Source: Shigella phage vB_SflS-ISF001. Taken from it: a DNA stretch of 50,552 bases. The stretch lies in sequence record MG049919, one strand, 5' to 3'. Both the position numbers and the translations under genes were made by a program. Below the pieces are notes generated by a model that made no database searches, was not told the origin of the DNA, and was given only the letters and a program-made list of their open reading frames with translations. This document shows positions 4,742-45,910 of this stretch, in pieces. Position 1 is the first letter of the stretch; every line of letters begins with the position of its first letter.

Positions 4742-5455
4742 TCATTCTTTCCTCACCTTTGCTCGTTTGTTTTTCACCGAACGGCAAATGCTTGTGCTTG
4801 GGATGTAGTGAGTCTGTTGCACCACACCTTCTTTAAGTTCGCGCTTATTAAAAATTACCGAACCTTTGTTATTACCGACTACGGCCTTTCCAGTTTCAGC
4901 GGATGTGAAAGCCAGACGACCGGATCGTGCGTATTCATTGCCGTCAATAGCCTCAGTCAAATCAGCTTCAATCCAGATGATTTCAGCCGCGTGCTGTCGA
5001 ACCTCAGTATACCACCCAGTCGAGTTATCGGCAGGTAAAAGAATATCGATCCGGTTGTTGCGCTCCTTTTGCTCAATCGCTTTCTTGACGAATGTATCAG
5101 GTTGAATGTAAGGAGGGTTTAACCATACGTGCTTATTTTTACCCCACCAAGGTATTAAGCAGTTTGTTTCCTGGGAATAAAACTTCTCGCAAACTATATT
5201 TTCTACGCTTGCCGCAGCGTCGAGATCATATTTTCCGTAGGGACCCTCAAGGTATACGATAACCTCGCGTGGGGTTGACCATAAAACACGAACTGCGTCA
5301 GGTGTACTGGTTCCCTTGTATCGACGTCCTAAAATCTCTTTGCAGGTTGGCGTTTTCTGTGCTTGATAATAACCGTCTGATGCTATTGCTTCACGAGTGA
5401 ATGAGCACGCAGTTTCTGCATAGTCGATTGTTTCGATATCGTTAAAGTCTATCAT
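4742..5455 (-). CDS. DNA N6-adenine methyltransferase (phage Dam family)
   Basis: Catalytic NPPY motif (WLNPPYIQPD), size about 237 aa typical of phage Dam family; GAGAGGA RBS; 20-mer motif 50 nt upstream. Confidence 0.75.
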   Translation of the reverse strand: MIDFNDIETIDYAETACSFTREAIASDGYYQAQKTPTCKEILGRRYKGTSTPDAVRVLWSTPREVIVYLEGPYGKYDLDAAASVENIVCEKFYSQETNCLIPWWGKNKHVWLNPPYIQPDTFVKKAIEQKERNNRIDILLPADNSTGWYTEVRQHAAEIIWIEADLTEAIDGNEYARSGRLAFTSAETGKAVVGNNKGSVIFNKRELKEGVVQQTHYIPSTSICRSVKNKRAKVRKE

Positions 5456-43927: not shown

Positions 43928-44503
43928 TTACAGTCCGCACTTTTCTTTATGCGCACTCATCTGGCGAACCAGGTCGCGCACGGCACTTACAGTTATGTCG
44001 CCTTTCTCAATGTCATCATTATCAGGAACAAACCAGTCAAGGTAGTCAGCCGGGCTAACTCTTTTCCGGGTGAGGCGCTTCTTCACCGGAACCTCTTCGT
44101 CACTCACGGAAATAGTAACGACTCGCAACTTCTCATCGATCATGGTCACGCTCACCTTGACCCACTTGCCGATTTTGGAGAAGTGTCGCGATACGATCGG
44201 GGTGATTTCTGAGGATTTAAACTTCTCGATAATCTCTTCGGTCCGCCCAAGCAACCAGGACCCGGCGCACTCGACAACATCATAATCGTCGACGTCTGGC
44301 ATTGACTTCCTCACACAGGCCTCAGCCATCTGAGTAGCGTCGAATGTGAACTCAGTATTCACGCCATCACCATAAAGCTGATCGCAAGCGGCCCGGATAA
44401 CATCAGACACCTTAACCTCCTGGCGCTGCTCAACCGTTACCCCAGCCTTCTCGGAACCTGCCTGCATTGCTGCCTGAACCGCATCTGATTGGTAAGAACT
44501 CAT
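43928..44503 (-). CDS. hypothetical protein (191 aa), first gene of leftward early unit
   Basis: Start at internal ATG with AAGGAG RBS (track ORF to 44593); adjacent to control region B. Confidence 0.5.
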   Translation of the reverse strand: MSSYQSDAVQAAMQAGSEKAGVTVEQRQEVKVSDVIRAACDQLYGDGVNTEFTFDATQMAEACVRKSMPDVDDYDVVECAGSWLLGRTEEIIEKFKSSEITPIVSRHFSKIGKWVKVSVTMIDEKLRVVTISVSDEEVPVKKRLTRKRVSPADYLDWFVPDNDDIEKGDITVSAVRDLVRQMSAHKEKCGL

Positions 44504-44920
44504 AGGTTTCTCCTTAGTTTCAATATACACAATGATTAACGCGTAACAGCGCGTCTCTAATTGCAGTGTTACACGACGACCCGCCTGCGTCAAGGCTTGC
44601 AGGTCGATTTTAAGTGTGGTTAATCGTGTTAATCGTGTTAATCGCTTTCCCCATATAAATATGAGCCGATAAAACTACTGTATATATAAACATGAATACA
44701 ATAATCAGAGCATCCAACGATTAACATAGTAGACACGCTATACAACCATATTACAGATAATAGTATCTATATATATAAATAAAAAAAATACTTATATATT
44801 ATATATATACATATAGATATATGTATATTATAAGGCGTAATTTGGTGTAATTTTGTCTACTATTGAGATTCAGGCAAATTGTAGACAACTGTTAACACAC
44901 GGTCAAGTGTAACCGTAATC

Positions 44921-44940
44921 GATAGCACGTTTTGCTAAAA
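44921..44940 (+). promoter_or_regulatory. 20-mer motif copy inside control region B (no obvious -10 or gene)
   Basis: ATAGCACGTTTTGCTAAAAA; about 265 nt upstream of first rightward gene. Confidence 0.4.
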
Positions 44941-45125
44941 ATGGAGATAACCACCAGGCGAACCGGGTAACACCAGATCCTCCCTCTCACAATCATTGCA
45001 TTCTAAGCAACAAATAAACCAACTGTTGCACACCGTGCAATAATCACGTTTCATCATTCGTAATCAATAACAATCAAGGTTATTACACCTATTCCAGTAT
45101 TGATGGAATAATGAGCAATTATTGG

Positions 45126-45145
45126 AATAGCATTTTTTGCTAACG
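45126..45145 (+). promoter_or_regulatory. early promoter cassette for rightward unit
   Basis: ATAGCATTTTTTGCTAACG; tandem GGTCGGGTA x2 then GTATAG 22 bp downstream; leader AACCAATCAGAAGAGGAAG. Confidence 0.55.
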
Positions 45146-45205
45146 ACTCGGTCGGGTAGGTCGGGTATAGTCCGGCCCATAAACCAATCAGAAGAGGAAG
45201 CAACA

Positions 45206-45910
45206 ATGAAATTAATCTGGTCACTATACGACGGTTCTGGTCTTGCAAATCTTGAGCTAGCAAAGCAAGGCCATAAGGTGATGTGCTTCAACTGGGACGG
45301 AGCCGATCACGGAGTTTACGCAAAGTACAACGCCAGGGTTGAGCGTCATAACATTGAGTATGTGAACGTCTTTATTAATGAGAAGTTCGAACGTGATGCT
45401 ACCGCGCCTGTGTATGGCAAGCCTGATTTAATCAGGGCATTTCCTCAATGCACTGACCTGGCTGTTAGTGGCGCTGGTCACTTCGTAAGAAAGCGTGAGC
45501 GAGATCCGTTATTCCAGGAGAAGGCTGTTGCTACCGCCGGGATTGCTGCGAATATTGGCGACTCTCTTGGCGTGACTTACATATTTGAGAATCCGGTGAG
45601 TGTCCTGTCATCTGCCTGGAGAAAACCAAATCACTCCTTCAACCCCTGGGAGTATGGCGGCTATCTTCCTGAGAATGACGCACACCCCAAGTTCCCTATG
45701 TATATTGCGCCGCGCGATCGTTATCCGAAGAAAACTTGTCTTTGGACCTCGGACGATTTTGTCACACCGGAGAAAAAAAAAGTAAGCCTGCCTGACGGGT
45801 ACTCTACGCATCACAGCAAGCAGGGCAGCAAGTCGGTAAAGACGAAGCTGATACGATCCCTGTCGCAGCGTGGATTTTTCCCGGCGATCGCAAATAGCAC
45901 TTTTTGTTAA
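45206..45910 (+). CDS. putative DNA methyltransferase (weak C5-cytosine-like motifs)
   Basis: LYDGSG (motif I-like), FPQCTDLAVSGAG (PC-motif-like), IFENPV (ENV-like); ATG with AGAGGAAG RBS (track ORF from 45137); assignment tentative. Confidence 0.4.
   Translation: MKLIWSLYDGSGLANLELAKQGHKVMCFNWDGADHGVYAKYNARVERHNIEYVNVFINEKFERDATAPVYGKPDLIRAFPQCTDLAVSGAGHFVRKRERDPLFQEKAVATAGIAANIGDSLGVTYIFENPVSVLSSAWRKPNHSFNPWEYGGYLPENDAHPKFPMYIAPRDRYPKKTCLWTSDDFVTPEKKKVSLPDGYSTHHSKQGSKSVKTKLIRSLSQRGFFPAIANSTFC

Follow-up and report, generated by a model that had tools for sequence, protein, structure and literature searches.

The locus at positions 45206–45910 of Shigella phage vB_SflS-ISF001 raises the question of whether this phage carries two DNA-modifying enzymes. 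The preliminary description, made from the sequence of the 50,552-nucleotide stretch analysed here (the window), had proposed a C5-cytosine-type DNA methyltransferase at this locus in addition to a Dam-type enzyme, and had considered a diverged or non-methylase protein as the alternative. The proposal of a second, C5-cytosine-type enzyme beside the Dam-type one is upheld by PHROG 757, by family-level matches to PF00145, by the predicted fold, and by the conserved residues. The gene is annotated in the record and its family has been characterised experimentally, so the feature is already known. Orphan methylases of both the Dam and the C5 type have likewise been described before in T1-like phages.

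Reading frame, surroundings and the Dam-type companion

The compact C5-cytosine DNA methyltransferase-like coding sequence (45206..45910, + strand) begins with an ATG at 45206, finishes with a stop codon whose last base is 45910, and encodes 234 amino acids. Its product matches the NCBI entry "DNA methyltransferase [Shigella phage vB_SflS-ISF001]" at 100% identity. The ISF001 genome paper gives identical coordinates and names the gene ORF67, "DNA methylase" (PMC6667099). ISF001 is a T1-like phage, and its closest relatives belong to the same genus, Tunavirus, in the family Drexlerviridae. The ATG at 45206 is taken as the start codon because homologues share the same N-terminus, which also rules out the upstream TTG at 45137. 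A Shine–Dalgarno-like GAGGA, read from the sequence, lies 7 nt 5' of the ATG (45194..45198, + strand). Among the escape mutants of phage K42, to which we return below, a single-base change lies 9 bp ahead of the start codon of the homologue (10.1101/2023.08.16.553469); the parallel with the GAGGA of ORF67 is one of analogy only.

ORF67 leads the rightward block, as had been described before: it is the first + strand gene past a non-coding gap of ~700 bp, and the leftward block ends at 44503. Its neighbours are small hypothetical ORFs. Since no restriction endonuclease gene adjoins it, ORF67 is regarded as an orphan methylase. The gap between the divergent blocks (44504–45205) is 100% identical to that of phage ISF002 across the 600 nt checked. 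It contains an AT-rich alternating tract, tatatatatacatatagatatatgtatatta, notably at 44800–44832, and promoter-like sites on the − strand at 44906–44878 and 44827–44798. No sigma-70-like site was found on the + strand upstream of ORF67, and the promoter/terminator scan never rose above the shuffled expectation.

The companion gene (4742..5455, − strand), listed as ORF10 in the ISF001 genome paper (PMC6667099), encodes a Dam-type N6-adenine DNA methyltransferase of 237 amino acids. The NPPY motif that had been reported for it is present, and the ORF matches Pfam PF05869 (Dam) with an E-value of 2.7e-56. The score of this match is 190 bits for ISF001 versus 232 bits for the ISF002 allele, from which the ISF001 gene differs by 33.5 nonsynonymous and 0.5 synonymous changes. 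The presence of two DNA methylases in phage ISF001 is supported.

Family, fold and conserved residues

Residues 1–231 of the ORF67 protein match PHROG 757, "DNA methyltransferase", with an E-value of 5.8e-72. The family is large and made up of compact, stand-alone proteins of ~210–260 amino acids, with 1,596 matches at 90% clustering and 1,905 clusters at 50% identity (E ≤ 1e-3); the best 150 of the latter that were listed are mostly ~205–260 amino acids long. Homologues occur in 1,498 phage records, many of them named "DNA methyltransferase", "cytosine DNA methylase" or "Dcm-like C5 cytosine methyltransferase". They are found in Drexlerviridae, Dhillonvirus, Kagunavirus, Webervirus-type Klebsiella phages, rV5-like and RB49-like myoviruses, N15/phiKO2-type phages, and others.

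The outcome of other profile searches depends on the query. With ORF67 alone, Pfam returned no methyltransferase match, only noise (Abhydrolase_4, E-value 0.12), and neither NCBIfam nor phmmer against PDB sequences gave anything informative; hmmsearch with the family profile against PDB sequences found no match either. When 40 family representatives were compared with PF00145, "C-5 cytosine-specific DNA methylase", 25 matched at E ≤ 1, and two of them (28.5 and 25.4 bits) passed the gathering score of 22 bits. These matches are limited to profile positions 4–92, i.e., to motifs I–IV in the N-terminal third. The profile check suggested in the preliminary description has a divided outcome: in its single-sequence Pfam form it gives no match and would lead to a false refutation, whereas the family-level search with PF00145 is positive. 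This family can escape Pfam or HHpred-style checks run with one sequence, and family-level profiles or structure are therefore needed.

From the family alignment, AlphaFold gave a confident model, with a pLDDT of 89.1 and a pTM of 0.87. In a Foldseek search against the PDB, the catalytic domains of DNMT3A and DNMT3B ranked first (E 4.5e-7), placing the model in the C5-methyltransferase fold, and the viral predicted structures agree with this assignment. DNA methyltransferases ranked above Dnmt2 in both fold searches.

The three sequence blocks noted earlier, LYDGSG, FPQCTDLAVSGAG and IFENPV, are all present in ORF67 and lie on the most conserved columns of the family, so they are not chance matches. 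The motif I-like LYDGSG (residues 7–12; 45224..45241, + strand) forms the loop after strand β1 (residues 3–7) and is predicted to bind AdoMet. It falls inside the PF00145-aligned segment, profile positions 4–92 corresponding to residues ~5–104 of the family members. The family consensus of this block is F/Y-D-x-S/T-G, and the ISF001 sequence fits it as an AdoMet loop of the C5-methyltransferase kind. Tyr8 is replaced by Phe in all seven Tunavirus relatives, yet Tyr occurs here in 15 of 45 distant family members.

Motif IV, FPQCTDLAVSGAG (residues 79–91; 45440..45478, + strand), contains the predicted catalytic Cys82 (45449–45451), preceded by Gln81 (45446–45448). Cys82 is invariant in 84 representatives (39 closer and 45 distant), and the sole segment aligned by hhalign pairs it with E. 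coli Dcm Cys177. The family version of the motif reads F-P-P-C-T-D-L-A-V-S-G, with Thr rather than the canonical Gln after the Cys. The nucleophilic Cys is kept in ISF001, and the Pro-Cys dipeptide is absent from this allele. Motif VI, IFENPV (residues 126–131; 45581..45598, + strand), is located on strand 124–130 of the model and includes Glu128 (codon 45587–45589), the counterpart of the glutamate in ENV-type motifs. Glu128 and Pro130 are invariant and Asn129 is found in 43 of 45 members, making this motif an ENP variant of ENV. Across two family alignments, Cys82, Glu128 and Pro130 are invariant, and Pro80, Thr83, Asn129, Arg139 and Lys175 nearly so. Arg139, which was looked at as a candidate for the motif VIII arginine, is present in 41 of 45 members within W-R-K-P-D after the ENP strand.

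Towards the C-terminus, Lys175-Lys176 (45728..45733, + strand) is a predicted DNA- or substrate-binding pair, in register with the K175/K176 mutated in K42 Dcm. Lys175 is conserved in 44 of 45 distant members and Lys176 in 24 of 45, with Arg in eight more. The stretch of residues ~184–207 (45755..45826, + strand), which links the last core strand to the C-terminal helices, is the most variable in both family alignments and has a pLDDT of 73–84. This loop is a candidate target-recognition region, and ~75 residues in all span the distance from the ENP strand to the C-terminal helices. Two discrete forms of the loop exist: GYSxQHxKLGGKS in ISF001 and in most of the Tunavirus and rV5-like members, and G/S-D-N-P-G-W-x-K-L-G-G-K-S in KarlJaspers, aaroes and others. 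The two subtypes may reflect different target recognition. It is followed by a conserved block, TKLIRSLSQRGF (residues 213–224; 45842..45877, + strand), with the family consensus TKxIRSLTPRGF, which presumably resembles motif IX of C5-methyltransferases. Arg217, Ser218, Pro221, Gly223 and Phe224 are each at least 90% conserved in the family. ISF001 has Gln221 where 43 of 45 members have Pro and none has Gln.

For ORF67, the homology, the fold and the conserved catalytic residues are established. The profile matches, the fold, the register-exact presence of the residues mutated in the active K42 homologue, and the separate Dam match lead to the reading of ORF67 as a second methyltransferase of C5 type. 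It is probable that the gene belongs to a family of active-type phage C5-cytosine DNA methyltransferases. Points that weigh against this reading are the empty Pfam, NCBIfam and PDB-sequence searches with ORF67 alone, the private substitutions and lower PHROG 757 score of the ISF001 allele, the other loop subtype of the experimentally studied K42 enzyme, the in-frame stops in some relatives, and the BASEL results, the last four being described below.

Private substitutions of the ISF001 record

The atypical order "PQC" had been taken as a possible sign of a non-methylase. This reading does not hold, as the Cys is correctly placed, the family motif is F-P-P-C-T, and Gln81 is private to the ISF001 record. 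It is absent from seven relatives and from 84 cluster representatives. Pro occupies position 81 in 7/7 close relatives and 39/39 closer representatives; the 45 distant representatives have Pro (35), Val (4), Glu (3), Asp (2) or Thr (1), never Gln. Judged from these sequences, position 81 is not strictly essential in the family, though Gln is unprecedented. Relative to ISF002, Gln81 results from a CCA>CAA change.

Gln81 is not an isolated case. Altogether, 24 residues of the ISF001 protein occur in none of seven Tunavirus relatives, which agree with one another at nearly all of those positions. The private changes at conserved columns include P81Q, H47R, I127F, L206Q, G208S and P221Q. At the nucleotide level, ORF67 differs from its ISF002 counterpart at 37 sites, 20 of them at codon position 2, and some codons are altered at two or three bases (e.g., P192, CCT>AAA; K226, AAA>CCG). 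The 600 nt upstream of ORF67 show no difference from ISF002. All four proteins compared match PHROG 757, but the score of the ISF001 protein is 242.7 bits, 37–46 bits below the 279–288 bits of its relatives (KarlJaspers, 288.5 bits).

The same pattern is seen throughout the genome. In a whole-genome alignment of the ISF001 window (1–50552) with ISF002 (MF093736), ISF001 and ISF002 differ by 1,472 mismatches, 58% of which are A<->T or G<->C. Coding sequence accounts for 1,461 mismatches in 43,682 nt and non-coding sequence for 11 in 6,289 nt (Fisher p 1e-69). The changes comprise 1,341 nonsynonymous and 118 synonymous ones (pN/pS 3.19). Most fall at codon position 2, premature stops number only two, and many genes combine 0 synonymous with 20–46 nonsynonymous differences. 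With phage SH6 as the outgroup, 546 nonsynonymous and 34 synonymous changes in 22 genes are private to ISF001, 433 of these 580 at codon position 2; those private to ISF002 number 10 in all. Essentially all changes sit on the ISF001 branch. As a natural control, SH6 differs from both phages by 223 nonsynonymous and 1,482 synonymous changes, 1,479 of 1,705 being at position 3.

Random substitutions simulated with the observed spectrum would be expected to produce 73±8 stops and 306±16 synonymous changes. Random sequencing error is ruled out by this simulation, given the two stops seen. Relaxed or positive selection acting on ORF67 was rejected as well, for the pattern spans nearly all genes, spares non-coding DNA, and avoids stops. 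The differences between ISF001 and ISF002 are neither natural divergence nor random error. The locus tags of the ISF002 record (MF093736) carry the prefix "ISF001_" (ISF001_001 to ISF001_0076), indicating that the two records share an annotation history, which may bear on the substitution anomaly. Since the differences are almost solely amino-acid-changing and lie inside ORFs, any motif-level inference from the ISF001 record, including that from "PQC", is unsafe, and the record is unfit for use as a natural sequence variant without re-sequencing.

The activity of the exact ISF001 allele is accordingly uncertain. One explanation, which overlaps with the C5-methyltransferase reading, is that the gene does belong to the methyltransferase family, and either the record is unreliable at these positions or private substitutions at conserved sites leave the protein hypomorphic or inactive. 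We rate its likelihood as appreciable, if somewhat short of even. It draws on the 24 private amino-acid changes set against seven concordant relatives, the 20 of 37 differences at codon position 2 next to an unchanged 600 nt upstream, and the genome-wide coding bias with its pN/pS of 3.19 and only two premature stops, as well as on Gln81, seen nowhere else, and Gln221 in place of the Pro of 43/45 members. Loss of function is nevertheless at odds with a full-length ORF in which Cys82, Glu128, Lys175 and Lys176 are intact, as are Pro80, Thr83, Asn129, Pro130 and Arg139. In addition, Val, Glu, Asp and Thr occur naturally at position 81, and Tyr8 is common in distant members.

Proposed mechanism, specificity and known systems

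By comparison with the established mechanism of C5-methyltransferases, and in view of the conserved residues, ORF67 would act as follows. AdoMet would be bound in the Rossmann core by the motif I loop (residues 8–12) and by Asn29 and Asp31 at the end of strand 2. The target cytosine would be flipped out of double-stranded DNA, Cys82 would attack C6, with the ring activated by Glu128 in the E-N-P motif, and C5 would receive the methyl group. Lys175/Lys176 and the variable loop (~184–207) would touch the DNA. As an orphan methylase, the enzyme would mark replicating phage DNA, and it and the Dam enzyme would jointly hide sites from host restriction that is sensitive to methylation. Such an anti-restriction role is plausible; for the ISF001 allele itself, we infer activity, sequence specificity and an anti-restriction benefit.

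The BASEL study found most Drexlerviridae to be very sensitive to restriction, with no simple link to their methylase genes, and our literature search turned up neither methylome nor restriction-digest data for T1-like phages. The ISF001 genome contains 83 CCWGG sites, compared with 55.5±7.3 in dinucleotide-preserving shuffles (1 of 100 shuffles reaches 83), and 255 GATC sites, slightly enriched over the 229±14 expected. This lack of avoidance of CCWGG and GATC hints at sites that are masked rather than counter-selected.

An experimental reference for this family is phage K42, a KarlJaspers-like Drexlerviridae phage whose escape mutants from retron Ec86 map to a 711-bp gene termed "dcm" (10.1101/2023.08.16.553469; according to a reference list, this preprint later appeared as Wang et al., Cell Rep 2024, 43:114857). 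Expression of K42 dcm is toxic solely when Ec86 is present and raises 5-methylcytosine in the msDNA in vivo, as measured by LC-MS, while a C82A/E128A/K175A/K176A quadruple mutant is inert (10.1101/2023.08.16.553469). By methylating the msDNA, the K42 homologue triggers retron Ec86 (Eco1), and the resulting abortive infection is a cost of carrying the methylase; 34 of 35 Ec86-sensitive phages have a dcm homologue (10.1101/2023.08.16.553469). The stem of the msDNA contains CCTGG, and changing either C abolishes defence against K42 (10.1101/2023.08.16.553469). The assignment of CCWGG to K42 Dcm was an assumption by analogy with the host Dcm, and the dcm+ host MG1655 without the phage enzyme gave only low 5mC on msDNA (10.1101/2023.08.16.553469).

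The corresponding gene of phage KarlJaspers (Bas06) is also 711 bp long and annotated "Dcm-like C5 cytosine methyltransferase"; its relative in aaroes has 93% DNA identity. The aaroes and ISF001 proteins are 52% identical over their full length with no register shift through residue 182, and Cys82, Glu128, Lys175 and Lys176 are therefore the same positions in both. All four residues of the inert K42 mutant are present and in register in ISF001.

The methylase gene seems to be dispensable, given that K42 escape mutants delete or frameshift dcm (10.1101/2023.08.16.553469) and that some relatives carry in-frame stops. In the DELF2 locus (601–1305), codon 62 is an in-frame stop and the annotation divides the gene into two CDS; the SA30RD locus (600–1304) starts with GTG and meets a stop at codon 27; and the ADB-2 gene (JX912252, 2450–3153) is annotated as a "potential frameshift". 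These disrupted Tunavirus copies reflect either dispensability or sequencing errors.

Three further explanations concern what the enzyme does and on which target. That ORF67 is no methyltransferase at all, but a generic Rossmann-fold protein with motifs arising by chance, is effectively refuted by the PF00145 matches of the family, the fold search and the activity of the K42 homologue, and its likelihood is negligible. A protein with the C5-methyltransferase fold might act on another substrate or by another chemistry, for instance as a tRNA m5C enzyme like Dnmt2, by carboxymethyl transfer like PDB 8yf3, or in a hypermodification step. This is highly improbable, as LC-MS detected 5-methylcytosine in DNA for the K42 homologue, DNA methyltransferases rank above Dnmt2 in the two fold searches, and no hypermodification partner genes are evident among the annotated neighbours. 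A third explanation accepts an active C5 methyltransferase and questions its site: the target would not be the inner C of CCWGG, and the enzyme would use a different or shorter motif or act as a DNMT3-like dimer. We consider this possible but rather unlikely. It would agree with the assumed nature of the CCWGG site of K42 Dcm, the low 5mC on msDNA in dcm+ MG1655 alone, and the lack of detectable similarity to E. coli Dcm beyond motif IV (hhalign probability 0.2%). Further points in its favour are that only ~75 residues, including a variable loop of two subtypes, separate the ENP strand from the C-terminal helices, and that the top structural matches are to DNMT3, whose recognition domains are the smallest among the matches. 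Against it stands the loss of defence against K42 when either cytosine of the stem CCTGG of the msDNA is mutated, and the occurrence of a homologue in 34/35 Ec86-sensitive phages fits a shared site overlapping CCTGG.

Extended to the family, the same idea leads to the tentative proposal, to which we would give a similarly limited chance, that these ~230-residue proteins are minimal C5-methyltransferases without a canonical TRD, recognising DNA through the loop or as DNMT3-like dimers, with a specificity differing from inner-C CCWGG. If this were true, a minimal, non-Dcm specificity would explain why a dcm+ host leaves Ec86 untriggered and the phage enzyme triggers it, and the GYSxQH and DNPGW loop subtypes might have different targets. 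In the literature, the specificity of this methylase family rests on the CCWGG assumption.

Among known systems, the nearest to ORF67 are its Tunavirus orthologues in ISF002, SH6 (gp82), Shfl1 (Shfl1p86) and LeonhardEuler (bas13_0055, annotated "Dcm-like C5 cytosine methyltransferase"), which have 83–95% DNA identity and the same length and position. They are the natural versions of ORF67 and differ from it in having F8, H47, P81, L206, G208 and P221 where ISF001 has Y, R, Q, Q, S and Q. K42/KarlJaspers Dcm shares with ORF67 its membership of PHROG 757, a similar length (236 versus 234 amino acids) and its origin in Drexlerviridae siphoviruses of E. coli or Shigella. The two differ in that K42 and KarlJaspers belong to Tempevirinae/Hanrivervirus and have the DNPGW loop, whereas ISF001 belongs to Tunavirinae/Tunavirus and has the GYSxQH loop. 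In KarlJaspers and aaroes, moreover, other same-strand ORFs precede the gene, while in ISF001 it is the first + strand gene.

More distant enzymes resemble ORF67 in particular respects. E. coli Dcm and M.EcoRII share its enzyme class, the catalytic Cys (C177 versus C82) and, by literature assumption, the CCWGG site, but E. coli Dcm has 472 amino acids compared with 234. An hhalign comparison of the family profile with the single sequence of E. coli K-12 Dcm gave a probability of 0.2% and aligned only 25 columns around motif IV. Orthology with Dcm or M.EcoRII was rejected on this result, there being no homology across the catalytic and recognition domains, so "Dcm-like" denotes presumed activity only. 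Compared with the M.HhaI/M.HaeIII-type enzymes of PF00145, ORF67 is ~100 residues shorter and without a recognisable large TRD, and its family has PPC-T in motif IV and ENP in motif VI in place of PC-Q and ENV. The catalytic domains of DNMT3A and DNMT3B (e.g., PDB 6u8p, 6brr) match the fold of the ORF67 model at 12–16% sequence identity, but they are eukaryotic, CpG-specific, oligomeric domains of ~285 amino acids, whereas ORF67 is a phage protein of 234.
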